Counted from the first letter of the stretch, positions 2,091-36,300 are shown. The stretch is 64,000 bases of DNA from a bacterium OM1 bin76 (GCA_002238785.1 MPNA01000009.1:8189-72188), one strand, 5' to 3'. Made by a program: numbers and translations. The notes: generated by a model from the letters alone, not told the origin.

Positions 2091-2105
2091 GCGCGGGACG
2101 GGGAG

Positions 2106-6539: not shown

Positions 6540-7414
6540 TGGCCTCCTCCGACTATGCCGGGCGGCTGGAAGGCTTGAGTCAGTCCACCCGTTCGGCGAT
6601 CGCACAGGTCCTGAGCAAGGTCCGCTTCGAGATAATCCCACTCAAGAACGCCGTCGCCCAGGCCGGGCACCTCCCGCGGGGGGCCGTGATCACCGTAACC
6701 GCCTCCCCCAACAAGGGAATGGAGGCCACCATGGACCTGGCTGCAGAACTGGCCGAATCCGGGTTCGACGTCACCCCCCATCTTTCGGCCCGCCTGCATC
6801 GAGACCGGGCTCATCTGGCCGCGACCCTGGACAAGGCCGCCGAGTTGGGCATTCGCCGAGCGTTCGTGGTGGGTGGAGACCACCTCCATCCCGGTGAATT
6901 CTTCGACGGCCTCTCTCTGCTTGAGGCCATGAATGAGATCGGGCACCCCTTCGAGGAAGTGGGCATTCCCGCCTACCCGGAAGGACATCCGGTGATTCCG
7001 GATGCCAAGCTGGAGCAGGCGCTGCTGGACAAGCAGCCCTATGCTCACCATCTCGCCACCCAAATGTGCTTTGATGCCGGCGCCATCCGCTCCTTTCTGT
7101 CTGAGGCCCGACGCCGCCGGATCGGACTCCCGGCCTTCCTCGGCGTGCCGGGAGTGGGCGGACGGATGAAGCTGCTGCAGATCTCGGCGCGGATCGGGGT
7201 GGGCGACTCGGTCAGGTTCCTCTCCAAGAACGCCAAGGTGGTCACCAAACTGCTGGGGCCGGGGGGATACGACCCCGGGGAATTGCTGGAGGGCCTGGGC
7301 GACAGGTTATCCGATCCCGTCATGGCGATTCAGGGGTTGCATGTCTACACCTTCAACCGCTGCGAGGCGACCGAGGCTTGGCGCAGGGAGTACCTCGAAG
7401 CTCTGAGCCAGTGA
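6539..7414 (+). CDS. metF: 5,10-methylenetetrahydrofolate reductase
   Basis: MTHFR family (ELSPPK-like start region, FVVGGD, ATQMCFD). TAATG stop/start overlap with the upstream methyltransferase. Confidence 0.8.
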   Translation: MASSDYAGRLEGLSQSTRSAIAQVLSKVRFEIIPLKNAVAQAGHLPRGAVITVTASPNKGMEATMDLAAELAESGFDVTPHLSARLHRDRAHLAATLDKAAELGIRRAFVVGGDHLHPGEFFDGLSLLEAMNEIGHPFEEVGIPAYPEGHPVIPDAKLEQALLDKQPYAHHLATQMCFDAGAIRSFLSEARRRRIGLPAFLGVPGVGGRMKLLQISARIGVGDSVRFLSKNAKVVTKLLGPGGYDPGELLEGLGDRLSDPVMAIQGLHVYTFNRCEATEAWRREYLEALSQ

Positions 7415-8571: not shown

Positions 8572-9354
8572 TCACAGGCGGGATCGAGACCCGGAGGGAA
8601 AGCTGGCAAGCTCGGCGGTTAATTGGTCGGCCACACTTCGTATCAGCCGCCCTATCTCCATGCCGTCTGTGTTGCCGGGGAATCGATAGCTGGGACCGTG
8701 GAGGCCCAAAGCCGCCACTATCTTCCCATGGGGGCCGTACACCGGGGCCGCCACCCCGGAGATGTCCACCGCGAACTCTTCGTGAGCCCAGACAAACCCA
8801 TCGCGACGAGCGGCTTGAAGTCGGCACTGCAAGATGTGGGGATCGAGGATGGTGCTGGCGGTAACCCGGACCAGGTCCTGTCTGAGATAGTCCCGCAATC
8901 GATCCGGTTCCCATGCCGCCAGGCAGACCTGACCGGTGGCGAGGGTATGGAGTGGGAAGGTGTGGCCTGTCCAATCCTGAACCTGCACGGTTCGATCAGC
9001 CACCACCTGGCTGATGTACAGCACCTTCTTGCCCTCCGGCACCGCCAGGGCGGCGTCCTCCCCCAATCGGGAGACCAGATTCTCCAAGTGGGGCCGACCC
9101 AACTGCTTCAAGACTTGGGGGGAGGTTCCTCTGCCGGCCAGCACCTCCAATCCGGGGCCAACCCGATACCGACCTCGCCGGCCTACCTGCTCCACCATTT
9201 CGAGGTGCTCGAGGGTGACCAGCATGCGAGAGACGGAACTCTTCGGCAAGCGGGTGGCCTTGGTTATCTGGGCCAAGCTGGCACTGCGCGGGGAGGCCAC
9301 CACCACCTGCAATACCGCAAAGGCCCGCTCGACTGCTCTGACAGGGGCGGTCAC
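8572..9354 (-). CDS. IclR-family transcriptional regulator, probable regulator of the divergent carnitine genes.
   Basis: N-terminal wHTH (VERAFAVLQVV...SLAQITKATRLPKSSVSRMLVTLE) plus an IclR effector domain. I take the GTG at 9354 as the start. The longer 436-aa ORF to 9882 has an N-terminal extension with no protein-like character. Confidence 0.7.
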   Translation of the reverse strand: MTAPVRAVERAFAVLQVVVASPRSASLAQITKATRLPKSSVSRMLVTLEHLEMVEQVGRRGRYRVGPGLEVLAGRGTSPQVLKQLGRPHLENLVSRLGEDAALAVPEGKKVLYISQVVADRTVQVQDWTGHTFPLHTLATGQVCLAAWEPDRLRDYLRQDLVRVTASTILDPHILQCRLQAARRDGFVWAHEEFAVDISGVAAPVYGPHGKIVAALGLHGPSYRFPGNTDGMEIGRLIRSVADQLTAELASFPSGSRSRL

Positions 9355-22270: not shown

Positions 22271-25264
22271 ATGCGGTTTGTGGTCTTCGACTTGGAAGCG
22301 AACGCCGACCACCCACGCGCCGAGGATCAGGAGGTCATCGAGATCGGCGCCCTCATGGTGGAGGACGGAGCGGTGGTGGACGAATTCACCAGTCTGGTGG
22401 CGCCCACCCCGGGTCGTCCTTTGGCGCCCCTGACGGTTGAATTGACGGGTCTGACCGTCGAATCACTGGAGGGCGCACCCTCCCGGAGGCCCGCCTTGCA
22501 GGGGTTCGCGGAATTCTGTGGTGGCTTGCCTCTGGTGGCCCACAATGGCAGCACCTACGACTTCCCGTTGCTCGACGCCGAATTGGAACGAGCGGGGCTG
22601 CCCGTTCCGTGGGGTGAACGACTGGACACCCTGGAGTTGGCCCATGTGGTGTTCCCCCGGGCAGGGAGGGAGTCCACCTCCGACATGTGGGGCAAGACTC
22701 CACCCCGGTCTCGTCGCCTGACCGATCTGGCCGATCACTACCGAGGCGGTGAGACCGCGGAGCCTGCCCACCGAGCCCTATCCGATGCGCGGAGGGCATG
22801 GGAGGTGATGGAAGGCCTGCTCGAAGACTTGAACCGAGACCAGGCTGCCCGCAGGGCCCAACGGTGGGTTCTGGAGGTCACGGGACATCCTTGGGCGTCG
22901 TTCTGCCGGCCCGATGTGAGCAACCTGGTGGGTTCATACCGGCCTGATCTGGTGGAGATAATCCCATTGCCCGTCCCCGACGGCACGGACGACTCTGAGG
23001 CTGACCCGTGGGACGAGGTGGATTGGGCTGAGGAGACCCAGAGGGAGCAGATCGATCTGGATGAGTTGGTTGACCCGCTCGGTTCGGAGGGGGAGTTGAT
23101 CACCGATGGGATGGAGCACCGGCCCTCGCAGGAGGAGATGGCTCGGCAGGTGGCCGCGGCTCTCGCCGAATCCGGGCGCCTGATGGTGGAGGCGCCGACG
23201 GGAACCGGCAAGACCCTCGCCTATCTGGTCCCAGCCTGCCGGTTGGCCGGCGCCTGGGACTCCCAGGTACTGGTTTCCACCTACACCAAGGCCCTCCAAG
23301 ACCAGGTCTGCAGGACGCTGTCGGACATCTCCGACCGCTTGGGGCCGGTTGAGTGGACTGTGCTGAAGGGCCTGAGCAATTACTTGTCGGTGAACGCCCT
23401 GGCTGAGGAGTTGAACCTGGTCAATCCTCTCGAAGCGGGTCGATTGCGAGATAATCCTCTCTTCGGGGACCGCAGCGATGAGCCGTCCTACGATCATCAT
23501 CTGGGTTTGGCATTGGCCATGGTGCTGGGCTGGGCGGCGGAGACTCCCACCGGAGAGTGGGATGATCTTCGCTACGGGTGGCTTGGGAGATACAACCCCC
23601 AGATGTACCGGCTGAGGTCCCGACTCTCCATGACCGAGACCCCAGGTCGGGCTCGAAGCGACCTGGAGAGGCGGTGCTTCTTCGTCCGTGCCCTGCGGCG
23701 GGTGGCCGAAGCCCAGATCGTGGTGGCCAATCACTCCCTGATGCTGCTTCGGGACCAGATGACGGATCACAGTCCTCATCTGGTAGTCGACGAGGCGCAC
23801 GAGTTGGAAGCGGCGGCACGGTCCGCGTTCACCGGTACGGTCAGCGAACGCGGACTTTGGCGCTTGCTCCATTCGGTGTACAGCTCCAAGACCTCTGGAA
23901 GTCTGCTCCACCGGTATCTGCGTTCCCTGCCGGCCGGCCGAGCCCGGGACCGGGGTCAGGCGGGGGCCGAGCAGGTAATCCGGTCCTGGCGACGCTGCCG
24001 GCCGCACATTGACGAGGTGCGCGCCATCCTGGTGGATTACTTCGAAAGCACTCGCAATTGGTCGGTCAACTGGGATGGGGCGCCGTTTTCTTCGAGAATC
24101 ACCCGGGTCGACCTCAACCGCTTGAGTTGGGGAACAGTCACCCAGGCGCTTCAAGGGCTGGCCGAGGCCGTTTCCCACCTGGGCGGCACTATCGAATCCC
24201 TTCCGGTGCCGGACCGGCTGTCGGGCGATCGGCCTGCCAAGGAGCTCAAGCGTCGTATCACCCAGGCCAGCGGCGACGCCAAGACGATCGCGGAGCTTTC
24301 CTTCCAGTTGGCCAACATCGATCCGGACAAACTGCTGGAAGCGGCTTTCGTCTGCGACCTGGAGTTGCGGGAAGGGGAGTGGAACTGGGGGCTCAGCGCG
24401 GTCCCCTTGGATGTGAATACCCGGTTGGAGGCAATCTGGGAGGAGAAGGAATCGGTGGTGATGACGTCCGCCACGCTCACTGTCTCCGGGTCATTTGACT
24501 ACATCGCCACCGGATTGGGATTCGAGGGCGGTCGAAGGGTGCTGCTGGACAGTCCCTTCTCCGATCTTCCCAGACAGATGCTGGTGGTAATCCCCGGGTA
24601 CCTTCCCAGTCCCAGCGGTTCCAGCCTGGAAGAGTTCGCCCGGTTGGCGCCCGAGGAGATGGCCCGCCTGTTCGAAGTCAGCCGGGGGCGGGCGCTGGTG
24701 CTGTTCACTGCCAACCGGAGGATGGAACAGGCTGCGGCGTACCTCAAGGACCGGCTCTATGGGGAGTACGCCGTGCTCTGCCAGGGAGAGGGGTCGGCGC
24801 CGGAGTTGACCGAGAGTTTCCGCAATCCCTCCCAACCCACCTGCCTGCTGGGGAGCGGCACTTTCTGGCAGGGCATCGACGTGCCCGGCGAGGCGTTGAG
24901 TCTGCTGGTGATGGAGAAACTCCCGTTCAACTCACCGCAGGATCCGGTGGTGGCTGCCCGCCAAGAGGTGATTGCCCGCCGCGGCGGAAACCCTTTCGAC
25001 GACTACCTCCTGCCTGAGGCGGTCCTGGGGTTCCGCCAGGGGGCGGGACGGCTGATCCGCTCCCCCAACGACAAAGGGGTGTTGATAGTTCTGGACAAGC
25101 GGTTGGGGTTCGCCCGCTACGCCTCATCCTTTCTGGACAGTCTCACCGGGTCGCCCCCGGTGTTGAAGGCGGCCAGCCCTGTCCAGTGCTATCGCGCCAT
25201 CGCCCGGCACCTGGGTACCGAATCGGAAGCGATCAGATCGGGCGCCGCCGCCGCGAGGAGATGA
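22271..25264 (+). CDS. dinG: ATP-dependent helicase DinG with an N-terminal DnaQ-like 3'-5' exonuclease domain
   Basis: DEDDh exonuclease motifs (VVFDLEAN..., HRALSDA), then SF2 DinG/Rad3-family helicase motifs (APTGTGKT, DEAHEL, Fe-S-less Gram-positive DinG-type layout). Confidence 0.85.
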   Translation: MRFVVFDLEANADHPRAEDQEVIEIGALMVEDGAVVDEFTSLVAPTPGRPLAPLTVELTGLTVESLEGAPSRRPALQGFAEFCGGLPLVAHNGSTYDFPLLDAELERAGLPVPWGERLDTLELAHVVFPRAGRESTSDMWGKTPPRSRRLTDLADHYRGGETAEPAHRALSDARRAWEVMEGLLEDLNRDQAARRAQRWVLEVTGHPWASFCRPDVSNLVGSYRPDLVEIIPLPVPDGTDDSEADPWDEVDWAEETQREQIDLDELVDPLGSEGELITDGMEHRPSQEEMARQVAAALAESGRLMVEAPTGTGKTLAYLVPACRLAGAWDSQVLVSTYTKALQDQVCRTLSDISDRLGPVEWTVLKGLSNYLSVNALAEELNLVNPLEAGRLRDNPLFGDRSDEPSYDHHLGLALAMVLGWAAETPTGEWDDLRYGWLGRYNPQMYRLRSRLSMTETPGRARSDLERRCFFVRALRRVAEAQIVVANHSLMLLRDQMTDHSPHLVVDEAHELEAAARSAFTGTVSERGLWRLLHSVYSSKTSGSLLHRYLRSLPAGRARDRGQAGAEQVIRSWRRCRPHIDEVRAILVDYFESTRNWSVNWDGAPFSSRITRVDLNRLSWGTVTQALQGLAEAVSHLGGTIESLPVPDRLSGDRPAKELKRRITQASGDAKTIAELSFQLANIDPDKLLEAAFVCDLELREGEWNWGLSAVPLDVNTRLEAIWEEKESVVMTSATLTVSGSFDYIATGLGFEGGRRVLLDSPFSDLPRQMLVVIPGYLPSPSGSSLEEFARLAPEEMARLFEVSRGRALVLFTANRRMEQAAAYLKDRLYGEYAVLCQGEGSAPELTESFRNPSQPTCLLGSGTFWQGIDVPGEALSLLVMEKLPFNSPQDPVVAARQEVIARRGGNPFDDYLLPEAVLGFRQGAGRLIRSPNDKGVLIVLDKRLGFARYASSFLDSLTGSPPVLKAASPVQCYRAIARHLGTESEAIRSGAAAARR

Positions 25265-25715
25265 AGCCGGTATTGAAACCGGCGGCGTGCAGACCGCCGG
25301 CAAAGCGGGCGTGCTCGATTTTCAGGCAACGGTCCTGGACGACTTGCAACCCTGCTTCCCGGGCCCGGGCGGCAGCACCCTCGTGCCGCAGGCCCAGTTG
25401 GAACCACACCACCTTGGCGCCCATTTCGATGGCTTCTTCCACCACTCCGGGGAGATGCTCGGGGCGACGGAACACGTCTACGATGTCGGGAGGCTCGGGG
25501 AGGTCGGCCAGGGTGGGAAAGGTGGGGATCCCCAGTATCTCGGAGTAGACCGGGTTTACCGGGAGGACCTGATAAGGGGTCCGCACCAGGTAGGTGGCCA
25601 CGAAGTTGGAGGACCGCAGCGGGTTGGCGGAGACCCCCACCAAGGCCACAGTGCGTGCTCGCCGCAGTATCCCCAGCCGTTCGGTGGCGGTGGCGTCGTG
25701 GGAACGATCAGACAC
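25233..25715 (-). CDS. CoA-binding domain protein (YccU/CoA_binding_2 family)
   Basis: TVALVGVSANPLRSSN ... VVWFQLG. The 3' end overlaps the dinG 3' end by about 30 nt (convergent). Confidence 0.65.
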   Translation of the reverse strand: MSDRSHDATATERLGILRRARTVALVGVSANPLRSSNFVATYLVRTPYQVLPVNPVYSEILGIPTFPTLADLPEPPDIVDVFRRPEHLPGVVEEAIEMGAKVVWFQLGLRHEGAAARAREAGLQVVQDRCLKIEHARFAGGLHAAGFNTGFISSRRRRPI

Positions 25716-27003
25716 GGGCCGCCTCCGCGAGGGCGCCGTCCAGGTCTGCCAGTATGTCCACGATGTCCTCCAGTCCCACCGAGATGCGAATGGTATCGTC
25801 TCCCACCCCCGCCGCCGCCCGGGCCTCGGGGGAGACCTGCTGGTGGGTGGTGGAGGCGGGGTGGATCACCAAGGTCTTGGCGTCTCCCACATTGGCGAGG
25901 TGACTGGCGAGCCGGATCGATTCGATGAATCTCACTCCCGCTTCGAATCCCTTCTTGAGGCCGAAGGTGAACACCGCACCCGGGCCGGCCGGGGTGTACT
26001 TCTCCACCAGGTCCCTGCCGGGGCTGTCAGGAAAGATCGGGTAGCTCACCCAGGAGACGGCCGGGTGTTCGTACAGGAACACCGCCACCTCCCGGGCGTT
26101 TTGTATGTGACGCTCCATTCGCAGGGGGAGCGTCTCCAGTCCCATCAGCAGGAGAAAGGAGTTGAAGGGGGAGATGGCCGCTCCCACATCGCGCAACAAT
26201 TCGGCCCGGGCCTTGGTGAGATAGGCGTACTCACGAAAGTTCTCCCAGAAACGGAGCCCGTGGTAGGCGGGAGAAGGGTCGGTCATCACCCCGAAACGTC
26301 CGCTGTCCCAGGGAAACAGGCCGGACTCCACGATCGCCCCGGCGATCACCACACCGTGGCCGCCGATGAACTTGGTGGCGGAATGGACTACGATGTCCGC
26401 CCCCCATTCGAAGGGTCGGCACAGCCACGGAGACGCGAAGGTGTTGTCGATCATCAGCGGGATTCCGTGGGAGTGGGCAAGATCGGCGATCGCCTCCAGG
26501 TCGAGTACATCTCCCCGGGGGTTTCCGATCGTCTCTCCGTAAACCAACTTGGTGCGGGGGGTGATGGCCTCCTCGATGTTCTCGAGGCGTGAGGCGTCCA
26601 CGAAGGTGGTGTGGATTCCCATCCGCCGCAGGGTCACGTCGAATTGCGTGATGGTCCCGCCGTACAGGTTGCGGGCAGCCACGATCTCATCCCCTTCCTG
26701 GCAGAGGGTGAGCACCGCCACCAACTGGGCAGCCTGTCCCGAAGCGGTGGCTAAGCCACCCAGGCCCCCTTCCAGGGAAGCCAGGCGCTCCTCGAAGGCG
26801 GCGGTGGTGGGGTTGCTGATCCTGGTGTAGATATCACCGTAGTTCTGGAGCGCGAACAGGTCGGCGGCCGACTGAGCGTCTTCGAAGACAAAGGAACTGG
26901 TGGCGTAGATGGGCATTGCCCGGGCGCCCGTCTCGGGATCGGGCGGTTGTCCGGCGTGGATGGCCCGGGTGGAGAAGCCTGCTGACTCTTCGTTAAAAAC
27001 CAC
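25708..27003 (-). CDS. metY: O-acetylhomoserine aminocarboxypropyltransferase / sulfhydrylase
   Basis: Cys/Met-metabolism PLP enzyme: lysine pocket SATKFIGGHG, NPRGDVLD. GTG start at 27003. Confidence 0.85.
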   Translation of the reverse strand: MVFNEESAGFSTRAIHAGQPPDPETGARAMPIYATSSFVFEDAQSAADLFALQNYGDIYTRISNPTTAAFEERLASLEGGLGGLATASGQAAQLVAVLTLCQEGDEIVAARNLYGGTITQFDVTLRRMGIHTTFVDASRLENIEEAITPRTKLVYGETIGNPRGDVLDLEAIADLAHSHGIPLMIDNTFASPWLCRPFEWGADIVVHSATKFIGGHGVVIAGAIVESGLFPWDSGRFGVMTDPSPAYHGLRFWENFREYAYLTKARAELLRDVGAAISPFNSFLLLMGLETLPLRMERHIQNAREVAVFLYEHPAVSWVSYPIFPDSPGRDLVEKYTPAGPGAVFTFGLKKGFEAGVRFIESIRLASHLANVGDAKTLVIHPASTTHQQVSPEARAAAGVGDDTIRISVGLEDIVDILADLDGALAEAARV

Positions 27004-27206
27004 AGGCCGGAGTCTAGGGATACCCTTGCTCCGGCCTGCAGCGTATCGGAGGGTTGTCCTTACTGTCCGTTCTGACCGGTGGCGATCGGAATCTTGCGGG
27101 GCCGAGATGAGGCCGCCACCGGGATGGTGAGAGTCAGGACTCCATTGGTATAGGAACTGGTCGTCTCGGAGATGTCGAGATCATTGCCGATCACGAACTT
27201 GCGGCG
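26997..27206. repeat. Direct repeat copy 1 (about 210 bp), paired with 29201-29410. Includes a terminator hairpin at 27003-27038.
   Basis: Near-identical to 29201-29410 at an offset of 2204 bp. It is identical over the about 125 nt covering the hsp20 3' coding part, with several mismatches in the last codons and the 3' UTR hairpin (caggccggag...ctccggcctg). Confidence 0.85.
27060..27206 (-). pseudogene. Truncated 3' fragment of a small heat-shock protein (Hsp20) gene inside repeat copy 1
   Basis: Minus-strand translation gives ...FRRKFVIGNDLDISETTSSYTNGVLTLTIPVAASSRPRKIPIATGQNGQ*, the same C-terminus as the intact Hsp20 at 29264-29653. There is no upstream continuation. Confidence 0.7.
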
Positions 27207-27374
27207 AAATCTGACATATCCACCGATATTTGGACGAAAGCCCTGCCGGCTGCACCGACTTCATCCCGGCCTTGTTGCAGCAGACCCCTCCAGCAGAACT
27301 CTGGGCGGCTAAAGGGCTGGGCTTTCGTTACTCTATGGGGGTATTGGCTAGCAAGGCAGGGGAGAGTTTTAGGA

Positions 27375-28505
27375 GTGACTGCCGGAAGAGAACTGCACCT
27401 TCCTGATCTTGCGATCGAGGGTTTCCGCGGTATCGACGAACTCGCGATTCCCCGCCTGGGACGCGTAAACCTGATCACCGGACCGAACGCCGTGGGCAAG
27501 ACCACGGTCTTGGACGCGGTGCGCATTTACGCTTCCCGAAGCGACGATCGGGTGCTGTCCGACCTCCTGACTGTGCGGGAGGAACTATCTGCCGGCACAG
27601 ACGAAGAGGGTGTTCCATGGCGCGAGCCGGATTGGTCCGCCCTCTTCCATGGTCGACAGATTTCAGCAGGTACCCCCATAACGGTTCGATCCGGTGGCGA
27701 CCAACTCATTGTCCAAGAGCACTACGCCAACCGTGAAGAGGCATCACACATCAGTCAACTCTATTTCGAATTCGGTGTGAGTGACCACATTAGGGTGCTG
27801 ACAGTCACATTCCGAGGTCAACAGTGGACGTTGCCATGCTTGATTGAACCCGATGTGGATTTCGCTGGTCGGCGGGACTGGAGAAGACGGCGCAGATTCG
27901 GGTCGGATGACTCACTTCCATCGAAACTCACCTGCGAGTCGCTGGGTCCTGGCGCTTTGACTAATACACAGTTGGCTCGGTTCTGGGACGAAGTTGCATT
28001 GACTGACCACGAAGATCGGGCTACCCGCGCCTTGAGCTTGGTGCTGGGAGATACTGTGGACCGTGTCACTATGGTCGGCGATAATGGCCCGAATCGCAGG
28101 GGCGGTGGACGCCGGGTTGTGGTAAAACTGCGAGGTTTCCGAGGGCGGGTCCCACTCAAGAGTCTCGGTGATGGCGCCTTGCGCATGTTTGGCGTTGCAT
28201 TGGCATTATCCAACAGCAGGAACGGGCTCTTGCTCGTGGACGAGGCAGAGAACGGAATCCATCACTCCGTCCAACCAGACTATTGGCACATGGTCTTCCG
28301 CACTGCTTTTGAGAACAACGTTCAGGTTCTGGCGACTACGCATAGCTGGGACTGCGTCACGGGTTTTGCCAAGGCTGCGGCAGCGAACGAGGATGTTGAA
28401 GGTGTCCTTGTCCGTCTCGATAAGGTCGGCGAGAGTATCCAGGTCGTCCATTACCCGGAGGAAGAGGTTAGGGTCGCCGCCGAGCAGGGCATTGAGGTCA
28501 GGTAG
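27375..28505 (+). CDS. ABC-type AAA ATPase (AAA_21/AAA_15-like; OLD-family/PARIS AriA/AbiLi-like ATPase component)
   Basis: Walker A GPNAVGKTT, ABC signature-like SLGDGALRMF, Walker B LLLVDEAENGIHH, H-loop ATTHS. Lower GC3 than its neighbours. Confidence 0.8.
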   Translation: MTAGRELHLPDLAIEGFRGIDELAIPRLGRVNLITGPNAVGKTTVLDAVRIYASRSDDRVLSDLLTVREELSAGTDEEGVPWREPDWSALFHGRQISAGTPITVRSGGDQLIVQEHYANREEASHISQLYFEFGVSDHIRVLTVTFRGQQWTLPCLIEPDVDFAGRRDWRRRRRFGSDDSLPSKLTCESLGPGALTNTQLARFWDEVALTDHEDRATRALSLVLGDTVDRVTMVGDNGPNRRGGGRRVVVKLRGFRGRVPLKSLGDGALRMFGVALALSNSRNGLLLVDEAENGIHHSVQPDYWHMVFRTAFENNVQVLATTHSWDCVTGFAKAAAANEDVEGVLVRLDKVGESIQVVHYPEEEVRVAAEQGIEVR

Positions 28506-28507
28506 AT

Positions 28508-29146
28508 TTGCCCACTCCTGGTGCGTCGGGGCAAGTTTTGCTGGTCGAGGGCCAAGACGATAAGCACGTCGTCAAGCATCTTTGCCGCGCCACAGGATCA
28601 ATGCCGGATTTCAACATCGAGGTTAAGGGTGGTCTGTACAACCTTCTCAGCGCCATTCCAGTGGAGGTCAAAGCTCCCGGTCGGAAGACTGTTGGAATCA
28701 TGGTTGATGCCAATGATGATCAACAGGCCCGATGGCAAGCGCTAGCGGACCGGTTAGGGAAGGTGGATGTCGCGCTTCCAGGCGATCTCGCTCCCAGTTG
28801 GACAATCATTGAGGGAAGCCACGAAGTCAATCGTCCCCGCATCGGGGTGTGGCTCATGCCTGACAACGTGTCGCCTGGCGAGTTGGAGGACTTCATTGCA
28901 GGCATGATTCCACAGGACGATCCTGTGTGGCCATTGTCTTGTGAATATATTGACGGTATCCCCGAGCCTCGCAAATTCAGCGAGAAAAAGGTCCGGAGGG
29001 CTGAAGTTCACGCCTGGCTGGCCACCCGCAGGGAACCGCGGCGGATGGGGGAGGCGATAAGGACACAAGACTTGGATGTGGGGGAGGACACCTGCAGGAG
29101 GCTTGTGGAATGGCTCCGTCAACTCTTCACGGATCCAGGTTCGTGA
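28508..29146 (+). CDS. Small TOPRIM-like protein (DUF4276/DUF4435-like partner of the ATPase; split OLD-family nuclease component)
   Basis: N-terminal VLLVEGQDDKHVV (TOPRIM catalytic Glu) and IMVDANDD (DxD metal site). TTG start 2 nt after the ATPase stop. 212 aa. Confidence 0.6.
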   Translation: MPTPGASGQVLLVEGQDDKHVVKHLCRATGSMPDFNIEVKGGLYNLLSAIPVEVKAPGRKTVGIMVDANDDQQARWQALADRLGKVDVALPGDLAPSWTIIEGSHEVNRPRIGVWLMPDNVSPGELEDFIAGMIPQDDPVWPLSCEYIDGIPEPRKFSEKKVRRAEVHAWLATRREPRRMGEAIRTQDLDVGEDTCRRLVEWLRQLFTDPGS

Positions 29147-29200
29147 AGAGTCCCGCCGTTCCGCACAACTTGTCCAAGCCACCTGGCCCCGTACTCGGAT

Positions 29201-29410
29201 AAACCACAGGCCGGAGTCTGGGGATACCCTTGCTCCGGCCTGCAGCGTATCGGTTGGCTGTCCTTACTCTCCGTTCTGCGAGGTGGCGATCGGAATCTTG
29301 CGGGGCCGAGATGAGGCCGCCACCGGGATGGTGAGAGTCAGGACTCCATTGGTATAGGAACTGGTCGTCTCGGAGATGTCGAGATCATTGCCGATCACGA
29401 ACTTGCGGCG
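29201..29410. repeat. Direct repeat copy 2 (hsp20 3' end plus terminator hairpin at 29207-29242)
   Basis: See copy 1. This copy is continuous with the intact hsp20 gene. Confidence 0.85.
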
Positions 29411-29653
29411 GAAGGAGCCGCTGGGGCGCTCCACGAAGAACACCCGGGCATCCTCGGGACGCTCCCCGGCAGTGTCCCGCTGGGCAGAGACGGTGAGGGT
29501 GTTCTTCGACACCTCCACATCGATGAACTCGGGGTCCATTCCCGGCATGTCAAGGGTCACCACGAAGTTGTCGTCCACCAGGTAGACCTCGGCGGGCAGG
29601 GTGTTGGAGACCGCCGAAGGGAACTCGAAGAGCGGATTGATCCTGGCCATCAT
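29264..29653 (-). CDS. Hsp20/alpha-crystallin family small heat-shock protein
   Basis: Alpha-crystallin domain (VYLVDDNFVVTLDMPGMDPEFIDVEV ... GVLTLTIP). ATGATG start. Confidence 0.85.
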   Translation of the reverse strand: MMARINPLFEFPSAVSNTLPAEVYLVDDNFVVTLDMPGMDPEFIDVEVSKNTLTVSAQRDTAGERPEDARVFFVERPSGSFRRKFVIGNDLDISETTSSYTNGVLTLTIPVAASSRPRKIPIATSQNGE

Positions 29654-29926
29654 TGGCGCTGTTCCTTTCTGTTGATGATATGAATATCAGATTACGTCCT
29701 ATATAACCCATAGATAATCTGATATATTCCCACTCAGATATAGGGTTACGCCAGTCCCCTGGTTGTCATCAGGTCTTCCCACTCCATCTCTTTTGCTGCA
29801 TCCCGGCTCAGCAAAAATACCTACCTCAAGACCGGATCAGGCCTGGTCACGCCGGTAGGATGCCAAGGAAAGCACAACCATCACAGCAAAACCAAAGGGG
29901 AAAGGTCAGCGGGAAAGGAAGGGGTC
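29654..29926. promoter_or_regulatory. AT-rich divergent promoter/operator region with inverted repeats (gaatatcagatta ... taatctgatatattc)
   Basis: It stands out against the about 67% GC background. It lies between hsp20 (-) and a hypothetical gene (+). The inverted repeat does not match the HAIR or CIRCE consensus. Confidence 0.45.
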
Positions 29927-31129
29927 TTGCCACTCGCCACGCGATTCGAAGAACTGATTGAAGCGGTAGAGGCGGGGGACTCTGGCCGGTGCCGTCTGAT
30001 CGCTGACCTGCTCAAGGCCGAGTATGTCATAGTCCACGACGGACTACGTAATGCCGTGGCTCGTACGCTGGCAGAGGGCATTGAGATCGCCGGCCCTAAA
30101 GAGGGGGAGGCTATCGGGCGACGGGTGGTGCTGGACCTGATGGGCGATGGGGAGATACCCCAGTATTCCCAGGGTCCCATAATGCAACGGCTGAACAACA
30201 TCGCGGCGGGGTGGCATTGGCACGCCACCCAGTTCGAGTTGGTGGAGGAACCGGAGCGGTTTACGTTCATCCTGGGTCCGTGTGGGAGCGGGATGCGTTT
30301 GATCCAGGAAGGCGCCTATAAAGGAGGTAGGGCGCTGCCGCTCTCGGTGCGTCCCACCCTGTCGACCTTCATGTCATCGGACTATCCGAGCTACTGCAAT
30401 CACTGCTCGGAGATGGGCCATGCCGCTCTCCGATTCAACAAAGCCGTTTTCATCGTGGAGGGATGGACGCCTCTTCGGGAGCAGGGCATTTGCCTGCAGC
30501 ACACCTACAAGGACGGTCATCTCCCGCCCGATGAGTTCTATCACCGCGCCGATCTGCCGGCGCCCGATCGGGACCGTCTGGAGTTGAAGGTCGCCGATCC
30601 GAAACGGTGGTTAACGGACGAACAACTGGTGTGGATAGCCACCCATCCTCTCGACCGCTTGATCCAACTAGTGGAAAGTGGGGACCGAGAGCAGGCGAGG
30701 GAATTGGTTGACGAATGCTTGTTCGGATGGAAAGAGGCCATCCATGATGTCTATCGCTTCTGGCTGGCGCTGTTGTGGATCGAGATGCGGGATTCTCTCG
30801 GTCGCCAGGTGATGGAAGACATTGTCAGAAGCTCCGGTTACGAGTTGTTGGCGGTCTTGGATCCCCGCGTGACCCCGGATCCGGGAGCCGCCTGGAAGGA
30901 ATACTGGCGCTGCCATCTACGGCTTAACGACTTTGAAGTCGGTGGGGGGATGGGCGTCTACCGCAACGCGGTTGAGGCTCTGGTGGATCCTTGTTTGGGT
31001 GAGGCGGGTGAGGATGCTGAGGCTCTGGTGGGTCTGATCAGTGAGGGGATCGAGGGTAACGGGCGCGATCTCGGCCGGGTGTTCATCGATAGTGGCGAAC
31101 TCGTACACGAGGTCCGGTTGGCTCTGTGA
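29927..31129 (+). CDS. Hypothetical protein (Cys/His-containing; no family recognised)
   Basis: 400-aa ORF with protein-like composition (CGSGMRL ... YCNHCSEMGH). Putative TTG start preceded by ggaaaggaagggg. Confidence 0.45.
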   Translation: MPLATRFEELIEAVEAGDSGRCRLIADLLKAEYVIVHDGLRNAVARTLAEGIEIAGPKEGEAIGRRVVLDLMGDGEIPQYSQGPIMQRLNNIAAGWHWHATQFELVEEPERFTFILGPCGSGMRLIQEGAYKGGRALPLSVRPTLSTFMSSDYPSYCNHCSEMGHAALRFNKAVFIVEGWTPLREQGICLQHTYKDGHLPPDEFYHRADLPAPDRDRLELKVADPKRWLTDEQLVWIATHPLDRLIQLVESGDREQARELVDECLFGWKEAIHDVYRFWLALLWIEMRDSLGRQVMEDIVRSSGYELLAVLDPRVTPDPGAAWKEYWRCHLRLNDFEVGGGMGVYRNAVEALVDPCLGEAGEDAEALVGLISEGIEGNGRDLGRVFIDSGELVHEVRLAL

Positions 31130-32148
31130 CCTCCCGTCGGCTGGGAATCGGCCTGGTAGGCGCCGGTGAAATCGCCCGGGCAGCGCACCTGCCCGCGTAC
31201 CGCAACAACCCGGATGTCGTGGAACTTCGCGGGGTATTCGATGTTGATACCCGAAAGTGCCGTTCACTGGCACAGGAGGCGGGGGTAGCGGCGACGGAGG
31301 TCATGCAAGGTTTGTTGGAGGACCCTGAAGTAGACCTGATAGACATTGCGGTACCTCCCGGGCGACAGCCTGGTATTGTGATGGCCGCACTGCAGGCGGG
31401 AAAGCATGTTCTTGCCCAGAAGCCACTGGCGACGGACATCGGCGCCGCCGCCCGGTTGGTTGAAATGGCTGATGCCTGTGGAAGGGTGCTGGCGGTCAAC
31501 CAGCAGATGAGATGGGCGCCGGCGATCCTGGACTTTCAGCGGTTTGCCGAAGGCCGGTCGGTGCAGACGGTTGCGTTCGATCTGGTGTGGCCGATCGAAA
31601 GAGGGGACGGGCTGCCGGATTGGCTGACGAACGCGCCGCGTTTTGCCGGTCTGTTCAATACCATCCATTTTCTGGACGCCTGCCGCGCCCTGTTCGGAGA
31701 GCCCGAAGAAGTCCGGGCTTGGGTGGGCCCCAGCGACATTCCGGGGATTGCCGGCGAGTCGGCCCTGTACGCCATTGTGAGGTTTTCCCACCTGTCAGTG
31801 GCGATCCGGGACTCCCGGCGACGGGAGGGTAGGCCCACGGCCTCGCTGCGGGCTGTGGCCGCCGACGGACTCTTCTTCGCCCATCTGGGAATCTGGGACG
31901 CCTACCCGAATCCGAGTCCCGACTTCCTGGTTGAGACAGTGTCGGGTTCGGGACCCACGCTGGTCCGGACCGCGGATTCGTGGGTGCCGGACGCCTTCTC
32001 CAAGGCCTTGCGTCATGTGGCGGAGGCCATCGGCGTCGGCAGGCAACCGCTCATATCAGGGCGGGACAATCTCTTGACGTTGCGTCTGGTGGACGCCTGC
32101 TACGAATCGGCCGAACATCACGGGAGGCCCATCGCCCTTACGGGTTGA
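31126..32148 (+). CDS. Gfo/Idh/MocA-family NAD(P)-dependent oxidoreductase
   Basis: N-terminal Rossmann IGLVGAGEIARAAHLPAY plus a GFO_IDH_MocA C-terminal domain. Confidence 0.8.
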   Translation: MTSRRLGIGLVGAGEIARAAHLPAYRNNPDVVELRGVFDVDTRKCRSLAQEAGVAATEVMQGLLEDPEVDLIDIAVPPGRQPGIVMAALQAGKHVLAQKPLATDIGAAARLVEMADACGRVLAVNQQMRWAPAILDFQRFAEGRSVQTVAFDLVWPIERGDGLPDWLTNAPRFAGLFNTIHFLDACRALFGEPEEVRAWVGPSDIPGIAGESALYAIVRFSHLSVAIRDSRRREGRPTASLRAVAADGLFFAHLGIWDAYPNPSPDFLVETVSGSGPTLVRTADSWVPDAFSKALRHVAEAIGVGRQPLISGRDNLLTLRLVDACYESAEHHGRPIALTG

Positions 32149-32175
32149 CCGCCCACGGCCCACCGGTGTGGCAGA

Positions 32176-33024
32176 TTACAGCATGGAGGGCAAATCTTCT
32201 CCCTTGAGGGATTTGAGGAGTTGTCTCGATTCCTCGGTGACATCGATCTGGTCGCATCCCCACTTCTCCATCCAAACATATTCGGTGCCAAGCCACCCCT
32301 GGTAGGAAGCTTGGTCGAGCGCGGATAGGATCGGCGCGAAATCTATCTGGTTGTGCTTCAGCCGCACCTGGACCTTGTCACGGCTGCCGGGGCGAAACTG
32401 GATGTGTCGGGTGCGGGATGCAAATGAGGCGATCTCTTCGACACTCATCCCGCAGAAGAACATCATCGAGACGTCCAGGGTGAGGCTCAGCCCGTCCACT
32501 GCGTCCAACAGATCGCCCACCCTTTCAGCGGTATCGATCAGTGATCCCCAATGCGGTTCAACTGATAACTCAAGCCCATTGAAGGACGCGATCTCGACGC
32601 GGGCGCGAAGAGCCTTGGAGGTTCTGAGCAGGGCCTGCTGGTGGGTATCCCCTTCGTGTACCACCCCTGGGCAGATAGTCAAACCAGGCGCCTTCAGGCG
32701 GCGGGCAAAGAGAGCCGCTATTTCGAAGATCCTGATTGCTTCAGACTGCATCTGGGGGTCGGGATGAGATGCGGTCAGACAGGATAGATCAACGCTTGGG
32801 ACGAGAAACACGTCGGCGCATTGCAGGCCCATATTGTTGAGATCCCGATTAATCCTGGCGGACTTCTCCCGCCAGTGCTTCAGGTCTGAGACTTTGGTAT
32901 GGGTGACTTCTTCGAAGATCCCAATGTCTATTCCTGAATAACCCAAGTCACTGGCCACCGCCATTACGGTCCGGTGCTGCAGCGACGGCCATCCGTAGTC
33001 AGCGCAGGAATATCTGTTTTTCAT
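32176..33024 (-). CDS. Sugar phosphate isomerase/epimerase (xylose isomerase-like TIM barrel)
   Basis: AP_endonuc_2/xylose-isomerase-like TIM barrel features. ATG at 33024 (MKNRYSCADYGWP...). Confidence 0.7.
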   Translation of the reverse strand: MKNRYSCADYGWPSLQHRTVMAVASDLGYSGIDIGIFEEVTHTKVSDLKHWREKSARINRDLNNMGLQCADVFLVPSVDLSCLTASHPDPQMQSEAIRIFEIAALFARRLKAPGLTICPGVVHEGDTHQQALLRTSKALRARVEIASFNGLELSVEPHWGSLIDTAERVGDLLDAVDGLSLTLDVSMMFFCGMSVEEIASFASRTRHIQFRPGSRDKVQVRLKHNQIDFAPILSALDQASYQGWLGTEYVWMEKWGCDQIDVTEESRQLLKSLKGEDLPSML

Positions 33025-33148
33025 GCCCGAAACCCACGGTAGCAGGGTTTTTTCACTAAGCGGTTGTCCAGAAATTATACGACTTTGCCCCCTGATCGCC
33101 CGAATAGGCAGCAATAATGAACACAAGTCCGTTTAGAAGGGAGAAAAT

Positions 33149-34378
33149 ATGTTACAAGTTACACGCGTCTTTGTCGCAACGGTGTTGGCGTTGGTGATTG
33201 CAGCCTGCGGCGACGGGGACACCGAAGATGCTGCCGAAACCACGGCGGCACCGACCACCACGGCGGCGCCGGCTACCACCGCAGCACCCGAAACGACTGC
33301 CGCACCCGAAACGACTGCCGCTCCGGCGGGAGGGCTGGGAGCAGTGATCATGGAGTTGCCCACCACCATTTCCAACGCCGAGCAGGCGGCGGAGGCCACC
33401 TGGGTCGTCTGGGACGAGGACAGCTGTTCGTTCGTCGAGACCGATGACCACCCTGACTTCTATCAGGCAGTGCTCCGCGAGGCCGGAGATTCCGGCTACC
33501 GGTTCGCCTGGACTCCCGAGGACAACGTCTTCGACACGTTGATCGTGGCGAATGAGAGTTTCCGGGTTGCTGCCGCTGCTTCGGGTGCCGACGTAACGGA
33601 GTTCGACAACCAGTATCCCAGCGAGGAGCAGCCTTTGGTCGTTGCCGACCTGGTCGTCCAGCACGACCCGGATGTGGTCCTGTCGATGAACGTTCTCGCC
33701 AACCTGAACCCAGCAATCATGAGCCAATACAAAGAGGCCTGTATCCCGGCCGTAGCCCACTCTGTCCCGCATGAGGGCCAGCCCTTCTTCGGAGGTGGCG
33801 AGTGGTACGCCGTTGGTCGTGCGCAGGCTGAATACTTGATTGCGGTGGCGGAAGGCCGGGGTTGGACGACAGGTGACGTTGATGTCCTTCTTTGCTCCCA
33901 CTCCGCTTTCGTCCAGGATCGGACCAGTCCCTACGCATCCATCATCGGATTCCGTGAGGTGGTCAAGGAATCGTTCGATGTTGGCGATGACAACATCCAC
34001 GAACTCGAGTGTCCTTCCGATATTGTGACCGACCAGGCCAACGTGGCTGACTGGTTGACAGCTCATCCCGATACCCAGAACATCATGGGCTTTGGCATCA
34101 ACGACCTGAGGACCCTGGGCATGGTGAACGCCCTCCGCGAGTCGGGTCGGGCCGAGACATCGATTGCCGGCGGTGTGGGACTCTCCCAAGAGTCGGTTGG
34201 TCCGTTGTGCGCCAACGACCCCACGTTCCTCACCTCGGTGGACTTCGTTCCCCAACTGTGGGGTGAGTACGGTATCGCCATCGCCCAGGATATTGCAGAA
34301 GGGAATCCGATTCCGTCTGAGATCTACCCTCAAGCCACGGTGGTGGACGCGGAGACCATCGACCAAGCGACGTGCTGA
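33149..34378 (+). CDS. Sugar (ribose/inositol-type) ABC transporter substrate-binding lipoprotein
   Basis: Lipoprotein signal (VIAACGDG). Thr/Ala/Pro linker with a tandem 18-bp repeat (ETTAAP x2). Periplasmic binding protein type-1 fold. Confidence 0.7.
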   Translation: MLQVTRVFVATVLALVIAACGDGDTEDAAETTAAPTTTAAPATTAAPETTAAPETTAAPAGGLGAVIMELPTTISNAEQAAEATWVVWDEDSCSFVETDDHPDFYQAVLREAGDSGYRFAWTPEDNVFDTLIVANESFRVAAAASGADVTEFDNQYPSEEQPLVVADLVVQHDPDVVLSMNVLANLNPAIMSQYKEACIPAVAHSVPHEGQPFFGGGEWYAVGRAQAEYLIAVAEGRGWTTGDVDVLLCSHSAFVQDRTSPYASIIGFREVVKESFDVGDDNIHELECPSDIVTDQANVADWLTAHPDTQNIMGFGINDLRTLGMVNALRESGRAETSIAGGVGLSQESVGPLCANDPTFLTSVDFVPQLWGEYGIAIAQDIAEGNPIPSEIYPQATVVDAETIDQATC

Positions 34379-34403
34379 TAGTGATTAAGGGTCTTATCAA
34401 CCT

Positions 34404-35432
34404 GTGATAGGCAAGAAGCCACATTCAGGTGGCCCTAGCCGTAGGATCCGAGCGAACGTCGGCGGAAGTCGGCGTTCGCTCGGACTCGCCCTGGCGATCG
34501 TGGCCATCAGCATCGTCATGACCATGGTCAGCCCGTACTTCTTCGCGGCAGGCAACTTCCTGAACGTAGCCCGGGCGGTGGCGATCACCGGGATCGTGGC
34601 GGCAGTCTCCACCCCGATGCTGATCTCCGGCAACGTCGATCTGTCGGTGGCAGCCACGATGGGCCTCTCGGGGATGACTGCCGGGGCGCTTTTGGTCCAG
34701 GAACTCCCGGTGCCGGTGGCGATTCTCGGGGCCTTGGTAGTTGGCCTGCTCATGGGGTTTGTCAACGCGGTGATCGTTGTGAAGTTCCAGGTCAACTCGC
34801 TGATTGCAACAATCGGCACGGCCTTTATCGCCAGGGGTGTGGCGTTCCTGGTAAACAGTGGAAGATCGATATTCATCCCTGCCGAGTCCTATGTGAATCT
34901 CGGCCAGGGGTCGGCGCTGGGGATTCCGAAACCTGTTTTCTATACGGTGGTGGTCTTTGTCCTGATCGGCTTCGTGATGCGATATACCAAAGTGGGCGCC
35001 CACATCTATGCGGTGGGCAGCAGTCCCGAAGCGGCGCGTCGGGCCGGGATCAGCGTACCGAAGATCACCTGGGGCGTCTTCCTGGCGTCAGGGTTTTTCT
35101 CGGCGCTGGCCGGGGTGGTTCTCACCAGCCAAGCCGGATCGGCCTTTCCCTACGGGGGCCAGGGTAGGGAACTGGAGATCATCGCGGCGGTGATTGTGGG
35201 CGGAACGGCTCTGACCGGAGGTCGGGGTTCGATCACCGGCACGATTCTGGGGGTGGTGCTGTTGGGTATTATCGCAAACTCCCTCAACCTGGTCGGACTT
35301 CCTGTGCCTTACCAGGACATCTCGAGAGGCTTGCTGCTGGTCGCAGCGGTGGCCACCGATCAACTGTCCGGACGGACGCTGGGAGGAAGGGGCGTCTTCC
35401 GGGGACTTCGTGCGGGAACGGAGGAATCCTGA
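34404..35432 (+). CDS. ABC transporter permease (BPD_transp_2, ribose/xylose type)
   Basis: GTG start. About 9-10 TM helices. Conserved motifs (GNVDLSVAATMGLSGM). Confidence 0.8.
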   Translation: MIGKKPHSGGPSRRIRANVGGSRRSLGLALAIVAISIVMTMVSPYFFAAGNFLNVARAVAITGIVAAVSTPMLISGNVDLSVAATMGLSGMTAGALLVQELPVPVAILGALVVGLLMGFVNAVIVVKFQVNSLIATIGTAFIARGVAFLVNSGRSIFIPAESYVNLGQGSALGIPKPVFYTVVVFVLIGFVMRYTKVGAHIYAVGSSPEAARRAGISVPKITWGVFLASGFFSALAGVVLTSQAGSAFPYGGQGRELEIIAAVIVGGTALTGGRGSITGTILGVVLLGIIANSLNLVGLPVPYQDISRGLLLVAAVATDQLSGRTLGGRGVFRGLRAGTEES

Positions 35433-36205
35433 TGTCGGTGAAAAAGGGCCGAGTGGTAATTGAAGGAATCGGTCTCAGTAAGTCCTACGGGCCGATCATC
35501 GCGCTTGACAACGTGGACATCGAAATCCGCGCGGGGGAGATAACGGCGTTGGTCGGTGACAACGGGGCAGGCAAATCAACACTGATCAAGATCCTGGCCG
35601 GGGCCGTCATCCCCGATGCGGGTGAGGTTCGGGTGAACGGTGAAAGGGTGGTGCTCAGGACCCCGGCCGACGCCCGGGATCTGGGTATCGAAACCATTTT
35701 TCAGGACTTGGCGCTGGCTCCGGATCGCGATGTGGTCACCAATCTGTTCCTGGGGAGGGAGGTGCTGAGGAAGGGGATGGCAGGAAAATTCGGCATGCTT
35801 GACAGAGGGGCGATGGAAGCCCAGGCTCTCACCCAAATAGATGCCCTGGGAGTCAACATTCCCCGATCCACAGGCGTTTCAATCGGGGAGATGTCAGGCG
35901 GACAGCAGCAGTCGGTAGCAGTCGCACGGGGGGCGTTCTGGGCGAAGACGGGCATGTTTATGGACGAGCCGACCGCTGCCCTGGGAGTGCGAGAGTCCTC
36001 ACGGGTGCTTCAGCTTGCCCGTCAAATCGCCCAGGGTGGGGTGGCGGTGGTGCTGATCAGCCACATCCTTCCGCATGTAATGGAATTGGCTGACCGGGTG
36101 GTCGTCCTGCGACACGGTCAGAAGGTGGCTGAACTCACCGAGGACATCTCCATGGACCGGTTGGTCACTCTGATTGTGGGGGTGGACGCAGACGACGCAA
36201 CATAG
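35432..36205 (+). CDS. ABC transporter ATP-binding protein (single NBD)
   Basis: Walker A GDNGAGKST, signature SGGQQQSVAVARG, Walker B MFMDEPTAAL. Confidence 0.85.
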   Translation: MSVKKGRVVIEGIGLSKSYGPIIALDNVDIEIRAGEITALVGDNGAGKSTLIKILAGAVIPDAGEVRVNGERVVLRTPADARDLGIETIFQDLALAPDRDVVTNLFLGREVLRKGMAGKFGMLDRGAMEAQALTQIDALGVNIPRSTGVSIGEMSGGQQQSVAVARGAFWAKTGMFMDEPTAALGVRESSRVLQLARQIAQGGVAVVLISHILPHVMELADRVVVLRHGQKVAELTEDISMDRLVTLIVGVDADDAT

Positions 36206-36300
36206 TGAAGCCGGTCCCTAGGAAGTACACCTACGGACATGGCGGTTGATCCGAGCCCTTTTGGAGGGTTGCATTTGTCAAAGCGTGGATGGAACCAGTT

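Follow-up and report, generated by a model that had tools for sequence, protein, structure and literature searches.

Several two-gene systems pair an ABC ATPase with a separately encoded TOPRIM protein, and reviews have grouped AbiL, PARIS, RloAB and a pair from Nostoc as 'ABC ATPase + TOPRIM/OLD' two-gene systems that probably follow a similar logic. PARIS is triggered by Ocr-like proteins and its effector cleaves tRNA-Lys, and it provides the precedent that an ABC ATPase + TOPRIM architecture can act as a sensor and a released nuclease (PMC11464382). It has also been described as toxin-antitoxin-like (PMC13064643), and PH0156, a DUF3226 structure, is the top HHpred match for its effector AriB (PMC11381338). 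For BpOLD, the metal ligands have been described, including the extra metal-B residues E404 and E508, and the second Asp of the DxD motif was found to reach the metal only via water, with single substitutions being tolerated (PMC6755086). The sister candidate HEC-01, likewise an ABC ATPase with a TOPRIM protein, provided no protection when it was first studied, and later work found that E. coli B carrying it was defended against at least one phage (PMC12881386). Among 145 candidate systems predicted by 'guilt-by-embedding' is PDC-M38 (Payne et al., bioRxiv 10.1101/2024.01.29.577857); a full-text search of the literature returned no paper with PDC-M38 or DUF3226 in its main text.

The cassette reported here encodes an ABC ATPase (A) and a DUF3226 protein (B). 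Its kind is already catalogued computationally, as PDC-M38, and this cassette is a new member. The reading proposed is that A and B make up a conflict system of two genes, complete in itself and of the 'ABC ATPase + separate TOPRIM nuclease' type, in which a sensor ATPase would control a predicted nuclease; by analogy with the systems above, the probability of this reading is put at roughly 0.6.

Layout of the locus

The window, meaning the whole 64,000-nucleotide stretch of DNA that was analysed, contains the following features at and around the cassette.

25708..27003, minus strand: metY-type O-acetylhomoserine sulfhydrylase, a host context gene; directly after hsp20 at empty sites
26997..27209, no strand: left direct-repeat copy, 213 nt, with a hairpin and an orphan hsp20 3' fragment
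27210..27374, plus strand: cassette 5' non-coding region upstream of A, containing a presumed promoter and the ribosome-binding site GGGGAGAG
27375..28505, plus strand: gene A, ABC ATPase, GTG start, 376 aa
28508..29146, plus strand: gene B, DUF3226 protein, TTG start, 212 aa
29147..29200, plus strand: cassette 3' non-coding tail, from the stop of B to the right repeat, 54 nt
29201..29413, no strand: right direct-repeat copy, with a hairpin and the 3' end of the intact hsp20
29264..29653, minus strand: intact hsp20, a host context gene whose 3' end is duplicated, 129 aa

A first-pass annotation of this DNA had called two ORFs of 376 and 212 aa separated by 2 nt, and both were recovered with exactly that spacing on the same strand. 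It had placed the cassette at 27207-29200; the first of these positions is not a gene start, but the interval matches almost to the base the unique DNA that lies between the repeat copies (27210-29200).

The two repeat copies are 96% identical over 213 nt, and their final 129 nt are identical. The left copy contains a hairpin, GGCCGGAG-N16-CTCCGGCC, at 27005-27036, which adjoins the metY start, and the corresponding hairpin of the right copy lies at 29209-29240. This hairpin is not a dispersed REP element, since its only two copies in the 64-kb window are both inside the repeats. The left copy also carries the last 50 codons of hsp20 on the minus strand (tail ..IATGQNGQ*), annotated by NCBI in this MAG as a 55-aa HSP20 ORF, and there is only one intact hsp20 at the locus. 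Because the left copy is an orphan hsp20 fragment, the hsp20 region beside metY is truly interrupted, as the annotation had proposed.

The cassette is not an assembly artefact, given that the 16 kb around it were found at 100% identity in NCBI, ENA and JGI assemblies. Public records assign these exact proteins to the MAG of an Acidimicrobiia bacterium. Scans for sigma-70 promoters and intrinsic terminators gave matches that were no commoner than in shuffled sequence; the 3' two-thirds of the cassette's 5' region is kept in two sister lineages (L104 and L105). The genes within 8 kb encode the metY product, a CoA-binding protein, DinG, Hsp20, an oxidoreductase and transport functions. This setting consists of housekeeping genes with no defence island, which counts against the defence reading. 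No recombinase, integrase or transposase was found within 8 kb of the cassette and no tRNA in the 64-kb window, which rules out a tRNA- or integrase-type island.

The ATPase and its DUF3226 partner

The positions of the motifs discussed below are as follows.

27480-27506, plus strand: Walker A of A, GPNAVGKTT, residues 36-44
28161-28175, plus strand: ABC signature of A, SLGDG, S263-G267
28227-28250, plus strand: Walker B and catalytic Glu of A, LLLVDEAE, residues 285-292, with D289-E290
28332-28346, plus strand: H-loop of A, ATTHS, residues 320-324, with T322-H323
28547-28549, plus strand: Glu14 of B, at the end of strand 9-13
28706-28714, plus strand: Asp67-Ala-Asn69 of B, with Asp67 at the end of strand 61-67

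A belongs to the SMC/Rad50-head type of ABC ATPases and has no coiled coil. The AAA_21-type call made for it earlier agrees with the Pfam matches (AAA_21, 4.9e-16; AAA_15, 5.9e-12), and in homologue alignments all of its catalytic motifs are intact and are invariant or nearly so. The same is true of every motif that the first-pass annotation had quoted, namely Walker A, Walker B and ATTHS in A and VLLVEGQDD and VDANDD in B.

B is a full-length DUF3226 protein (PF11536, 8.3e-50, above the gathering threshold over the whole domain) composed of a TOPRIM domain followed by a helical domain. DUF4276 had been suggested for this second protein and DUF4435 named as a further model to search, but B matched neither family, and a DUF4276 partner is thereby ruled out. 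The two motifs of B (VLLVEGQDD, residues 10-18; VDANDD, residues 66-71) fall within a series of conserved blocks, L11-L-V-E14-G15, D67-A-N69, P118-(D)-N120 and G124-E-L-E127, and further conserved residues include Asp/Glu18, Asp119-Asn120 and Glu125/Glu127. The catalytic-type residues do not vary among 33 close homologues or in 2 distant plasmid homologues; Glu14, which follows beta1, is invariant in the same set. Matched by secondary-structure position without superposition, Glu14 and Asp67 would be the canonical TOPRIM metal-A ligands, and Asp/Glu18 and Glu125/127 would correspond to the metal-B residues E404 and E508 of BpOLD.

The TOPRIM pattern that had been noted in the N-terminus of B stands as far as Glu14, Asp67 and a TOPRIM-like fold are concerned, but the second position of its DxD motif is Asn. 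This Asn69 (D-A-N) is invariant in the clade, whereas the distant plasmid DUF3226 proteins have D-A-D. With D-A-N in place of DxD the catalysis of B could be altered. B is nevertheless treated as a predicted nuclease that is probably active, because in BpOLD the equivalent Asp contacts the metal through water.

Structure prediction supports the TOPRIM fold that the annotation had assigned to B. The predicted fold is nearest to PH0156 and to the TOPRIM + helical catalytic region of OLD nucleases, and its parallel beta-sheet is similar to that of solved TOPRIM domains; RecR was not among the top structural matches. Only this fold comparison was informative about structural relatives, as searches of the PDB by sequence, using phmmer and a family profile, returned nothing meaningful. 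A search of the Pfam TOPRIM clan with B gave OLD-like_TOPRIM (PF20469) only, at E 0.16 and 12.9 bits against a cutoff of 23.2.

A PADLOC search placed the pair in the candidate system PDC-M38, with both proteins matching at full length. A matched the PDC-M38A model PDLC04611 (1.5e-74, residues 10-376, model positions 3-383 of 383) and B matched the PDC-M38B model PDLC04624 (2.8e-38, residues 9-207). A also matched AbiLi (PDLC02336, 9.6e-42, model positions 4-340 of 340) and, partially, AriA (6e-20). The PADLOC matches of B were limited to PDC-M38B (two models) and HEC-01B (0.044); the AbiLii models gave no match at E<=0.1 and the AriB models gave none. Membership of PARIS is ruled out, since B matches neither AriB nor DUF4435 and A is only a partial match to AriA. 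By profile matching, the precise label is the PADLOC candidate PDC-M38, in which an AbiLi-like ATPase is paired with a TOPRIM protein of the DUF3226 family. Of the earlier description as a split OLD, PARIS- or AbiL-like cassette, the ABC ATPase + TOPRIM architecture and the AbiLi match were retained, but PARIS and an AbiLii partner were not; the cassette is neither PARIS nor demonstrably AbiL.

History, distribution and movement of the pair

Cassette-free hsp20-metY sites were found on six related contigs (L004, L098, L113-115 and L108), and comparison with these relatives indicates that the pair is not ancestral core content, a point on which the first-pass annotation had left its reading to depend. 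L004 represents a conspecific strain; its Hsp20 protein is 100% identical to that of the window, and its empty site has a single copy of the 213-nt segment, with 98.3% identity to the window on the metY side. The empty site of L098 is ~83% identical to the window, those of L113-115, found on contigs of up to 1.85 Mb, are 76-81% identical, and in L108 only a 111-aa ORF lies between hsp20 and metY. When JGI metagenomes were scanned for filled and empty sites by exact pattern there was no match, and L098 was the one useful locus from a protein-based rescan of the same metagenomes. Because empty sites have hsp20 directly followed by metY, hsp20|metY is the ancestral state.

The cassette occupies this site in three or four sister lineages as well (L103, L102 with L104, and L105), whose sequences align collinearly with the window at 81-87% nucleotide identity. 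Across these lineages A is 88-89% and B 79-80% identical, the flanking proteins are 72-96% identical and dS is similar. Cassettes at the same site with divergence like that of the flanks suggest that this is an old, patchy accessory insertion, and they rule out a recent insertion in this strain. In the sisters, decay has reduced the orphan hsp20 fragment to ~20 nt (L105) or removed it entirely (L104), and the window's orphan tail (..GQNGQ*) is of the ancestral type, retained in the functional hsp20 of L102. The idea that one copy is a foreign attP copy of hsp20 was not supported, as both copies are host-like and the orphan tail is the ancestral hsp20 tail. We infer that the cassette entered an ancestor of this sub-clade of Acidimicrobiia at hsp20|metY with a target duplication of at least 213 nt and then co-diverged with its flanks. 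That the two repeat copies of the window are nearly identical would then be due to gene conversion or to re-duplication at a later time. For the empty conspecific allele the simplest explanation is a deletion by recombination between the repeats; possibly it is instead a never-filled allele acquired by recombination.

The composition of the pair is foreign. The lower GC3 that had been noted for both genes relative to their neighbours was confirmed: GC3 is 0.62 in A and 0.62 in B compared to 0.78-0.84 for DinG, the CoA-binding protein, metY and hsp20, and these are the lowest values among the 51 predicted genes of the window. The GC content of the cassette is likewise the second lowest of 311 2-kb windows. 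In comparisons between cassette-bearing lineages A has a dN/dS of 0.16-0.23 and B one of 0.22-0.39, against 0.05-0.16 for hsp20 and metY. A and B are under purifying selection, which is looser than that on hsp20 or metY.

These values bear on a very unlikely alternative, in which the pair is a decaying or altered remnant, with B being a non-catalytic nucleic-acid binder because of its D-A-N and the cassette being neutral baggage. Every clade member has DxN for DxD, and B evolves faster than its neighbours (79-80% versus 86-94% amino acid identity), as this alternative would predict. However, both ORFs are intact in all lineages with dN/dS at 0.16-0.39, all other acidic ligands of B are conserved, and BpOLD tolerates single substitutions at its water-bridged Asp (PMC6755086). 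Asn69 is itself invariant, which suggests that it is under selection.

The pairing of A with B is strict. Scanning a single genome for each species gave 410 relatives of B, of which the best 80 (50-65% identity to B) were used for the pairing analysis. At all 80 loci, which span at least 10 phyla, the gene directly before B on its strand is an A homologue. These best 80 of 410 come from Acidimicrobiia, Latescibacterota, Gemmatimonadota, Chloroflexota, Spirochaetia, Nitrospirales, Entotheonella, Rhodothermales, Pseudomonadales, Acidobacteriota orders and Binatia, and the names of the MAGs suggest that many are sponge or coral bins. An exhaustive profile search gave ~3,800 clusters of DUF3226 partners at 50% identity; among the top 150 representatives of the family none is fused, each being a separate protein of 145-274 aa. 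Distant members of the B family (23-30% identity) are carried by small plasmids, where an ATPase gene once more precedes them. On a 6.4-kb mobilizable Citrobacter plasmid the A-B pair is the sole cargo, and in Acinetobacter the pair adjoins BrnTA. A phage origin is ruled out, as B has no PHROG family and tblastn of B against 50,697 phage records gave no match. Among 149 immediate neighbours in other genomes, with genes called using a codon-position GC filter, about one fifth are defence genes (DrmMI/type IIG, HmaB/C, pAgo, PbeA, SoFic, BrxH and others) and the remainder are mostly metabolic.

This distribution could also be produced by a selfish, toxin-antitoxin-like addiction module with no dedicated anti-phage role, in which B would be a toxic nuclease and A its neutraliser. 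The plasmid on which the pair is the sole cargo, its position beside BrnTA, its horizontal spread across phyla and the toxin-antitoxin-like description of PARIS (PMC13064643) are all consistent with this. However, the clean loss of the pair from a strain that is 98% identical argues against strong addiction, and the neighbours are enriched in defence genes. Addiction as the sole role is considered unlikely, though it should be noted that addiction and defence are compatible with each other. More doubtful again is a housekeeping or accessory role in DNA maintenance, either on the model of a RecF/RecR-like ABC ATPase with a TOPRIM mediator or resembling the Cran1-like OLD ATPases of the archaeal cell cycle. 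Against such a role, the pair is patchily distributed and absent from conspecific and sister genomes, its composition is foreign, it occurs on plasmids, its dN/dS is more relaxed than that of core genes, and RecR is missing from the top structural matches of B. This role is given a probability below one in ten.

Long direct repeats are not confined to this locus. Scanning 1.22 Mb of related loci for repeats of at least 40 nt and at least 80% identity, spaced 1.5-3.5 kb apart, identified 37 repeat pairs, 7 of which tightly bracket A-B compared to ~1.3 expected under uniform placement (Poisson estimate roughly 4e-4). The bracketing repeats are 40-470 nt long and occur at 7 of 74 related loci, the other 67 being without them. 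At one of these loci (L043) the repeat likewise consists of the final 114 nt of a host gene with high GC3, and just 16-20 nt of other non-coding DNA separates the A-B genes from the repeats. Lengths as variable as these speak against both a transposase and a fixed att core. The favoured explanation is illegitimate insertion with variable target duplication, with selection keeping those events that spare the host gene.

A highly improbable extension is that the pair is, or rides on, an integrase-less minimal mobile unit that inserts at the 3' ends of host genes with long variable target duplications (40-470 nt), possibly via its own TOPRIM nuclease and SMC-like ATPase, and later exits by recombination between the repeats. 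If true, this would be a previously undescribed route for small defence cassettes between phyla. Hardly any weight is given to the stricter form, in which A and B themselves mediate or assist their movement and so account for the long target duplications. The excess of bracketing repeats, the short spacing at L043 and the lack of an integrase or transposase within 8 kb of the present cassette speak for it. On the other hand, the repeats differ widely in length where a dedicated enzyme would produce a fixed stagger, 67 of 74 loci have no such repeats, and the cassette here was vertically inherited and co-diverged with its flanks. We know of no transposition system of the TOPRIM/ABC type.

Proposed mechanism and comparison with known systems

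In the conflict-system reading preferred here, A and B would be co-translated from one operon, and the SMC/Rad50-like A would oligomerise and keep the small TOPRIM protein B inactive. An infection cue sensed by A would, in an ATP-dependent step, free or activate B, which would then nick or cleave nucleic acid via an OLD-type two-metal site and halt phage replication or cell growth. In that site metal A would be held by Glu14, Asp67 and Asn69, and metal B by Asp/Glu18 and Glu125/127. The physical interaction of A and B, the trigger and the substrate are all proposed by analogy. DNA is considered about twice as likely as tRNA to be the substrate, because B is nearer to the OLD catalytic region than to AriB.

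If this function were confirmed, it would for the first time put on an experimental basis a fairly large family of ~3,800 DUF3226 clusters (50% identity) that is always paired with an ABC ATPase. It would also add a third, sequence-unrelated TOPRIM partner family for 'split OLD', beside AriB/DUF4435 and AbiLii, and would bear on whether all ABC-ATPase + TOPRIM pairs work, as PARIS does, through a sensor and a released nuclease. The invariant DxN form of the motif also amounts to a natural experiment on the TOPRIM metal-A site. The locus itself offers a natural series (a filled site, decayed repeats, a precise conspecific empty site and empty outgroups) that is useful for following the gain, retention and loss of small defence cassettes without their own recombinase. 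Current ideas are not overturned by the cassette.

The described system that the cassette resembles in every respect of architecture is PDC-M38, as both models match at full length with the same gene order and adjacency; the copy here differs in being solitary, and not within RM, BREX or DISARM. HEC-01 has the same ABC ATPase + TOPRIM two-gene logic and is Hma-embedded, and the ATPase family FAM_00005 is common to HEC-01 and one PDC-M38 cassette. However, B matched HEC-01B only at E 0.044, so that the TOPRIM partners are from different families.

The comparison with OLD nucleases (class 1, P2 Old/TsOLD; class 2, GajA/BpOLD; class 3, retron Eco8/Ec67) rests on the fold and acidic residues of B, which match the TOPRIM + helical catalytic region, and on A, which is of the same broad ABC ATPase class. 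In classes 1-3, however, the ATPase and TOPRIM are in one polypeptide, whereas here they are two ORFs, and the second Asp of DxD is Asn in B. Classes 2 and 3 also have an adjacent GajB UvrD-like helicase or retron RT/ncRNA, neither of which lies within 8 kb of this cassette.

In its logic the A-B pair is closest to AbiL and PARIS. With AbiL it shares an AbiLi-type ATPase, but the partner in AbiL is AbiLii, to which B has no match. With PARIS (AriA + AriB, proposed as class 4 OLD) it shares the split between an ABC ATPase sensor and a separate TOPRIM effector. The effector in PARIS is the DUF4435 protein AriB, which B is not, and AriA has coiled-coil/helical-bundle inserts that A lacks.

Variable segments on both sides of hsp20

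The gap between hsp20 and metY, which holds the cassette in this genome, is occupied by a different ORF of 111 aa (L108 5477-5812) in L108, a cassette-free relative (GCA_965243575.1). This suggests that insertion at this spot was repeated and took place more than once. The opposite side of hsp20, window 29740-36300, is a second variable side. It carries a block of about 6.5 kb with the following genes:

29740-36300: 400-aa protein, GFO/IDH/MocA oxidoreductase, AP_endonuc_2, solute-binding protein, permease and ABC ATPase

Since DSBA and Acyl-CoA dehydrogenase directly adjoin hsp20 in the cassette-free outgroups L113-115, the block is, judged from gene order, an insertion. The conspecific strain L004 is without the first two genes, those of the 400-aa protein and the GFO/IDH/MocA oxidoreductase, and its AP_endonuc_2 is just 78% identical to that of the window. 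Two flexible segments flank hsp20, one on each side.

Within the AT-rich stretch immediately upstream of hsp20 is a perfect 11-nt inverted repeat, ATATCAGATTA-N20-TAATCTGATAT, with arms at window 29684-29694 and 29715-29725. This repeat (29684-29725) is a possible heat-shock operator. Relatives give BLAST matches that extend past it, as far as about 29739-29741, and the region upstream of hsp20 is therefore conserved.

Other matches to defence models in the window

A DinG-like helicase is also encoded in the window:

22271-25264, + strand: DinG-like helicase, 997 aa, RNase T-type exonuclease domain at the N-terminus

It matches the PADLOC typeIV_DinG and DEDDh models (2.2e-107). Its synteny is kept in most relatives that reach that far, including cassette-free ones, which points to a core gene rather than a defence gene. 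In L108 a different gene is found at this position. A complete Azaca defence system, unrelated to the cassette and about 25 kb away from it, is located at 54373-60732 (+), and all three of its genes gave full-length PADLOC matches:

54373-55611, + strand: ZacA, E 1.3e-119
55571-57502, + strand: ZacB, 5.1e-163
57463-60732, + strand: ZacC, E 0

Gene B and relatives of the A-B pair

In the NCBI annotation of this MAG, B is a 181-aa protein with a later start (L003 8508-9053, affecting window 28508-28600), a version in which strand beta1 and the conserved Glu14 are lost. Alignment with homologues supports the 212-aa protein with a TTG start.

Among 74 related loci in other phyla, 7 have A-B flanked by long direct repeats (40-470 nt), where about 1.3 would be expected (L043, with copies at 6639-6753 and 8633-8747, L022, L072, L073, L013, L047 and L062). 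Repeats also delimit several 2-3 kb segments neighbouring A-B (L048, L045, L071, L055, L064 and L082).

Distant pairs of an ATPase and a DUF3226 protein are carried by small mobilizable plasmids:

L106 (NZ_CP055541.1), 2326-4172
L107 (NZ_CP038011.1), 2014-3858

An Acinetobacter plasmid carries the pair next to BrnTA and with a split ATPase, and a 6.4-kb Citrobacter ColE10-type plasmid has no cargo other than the pair.
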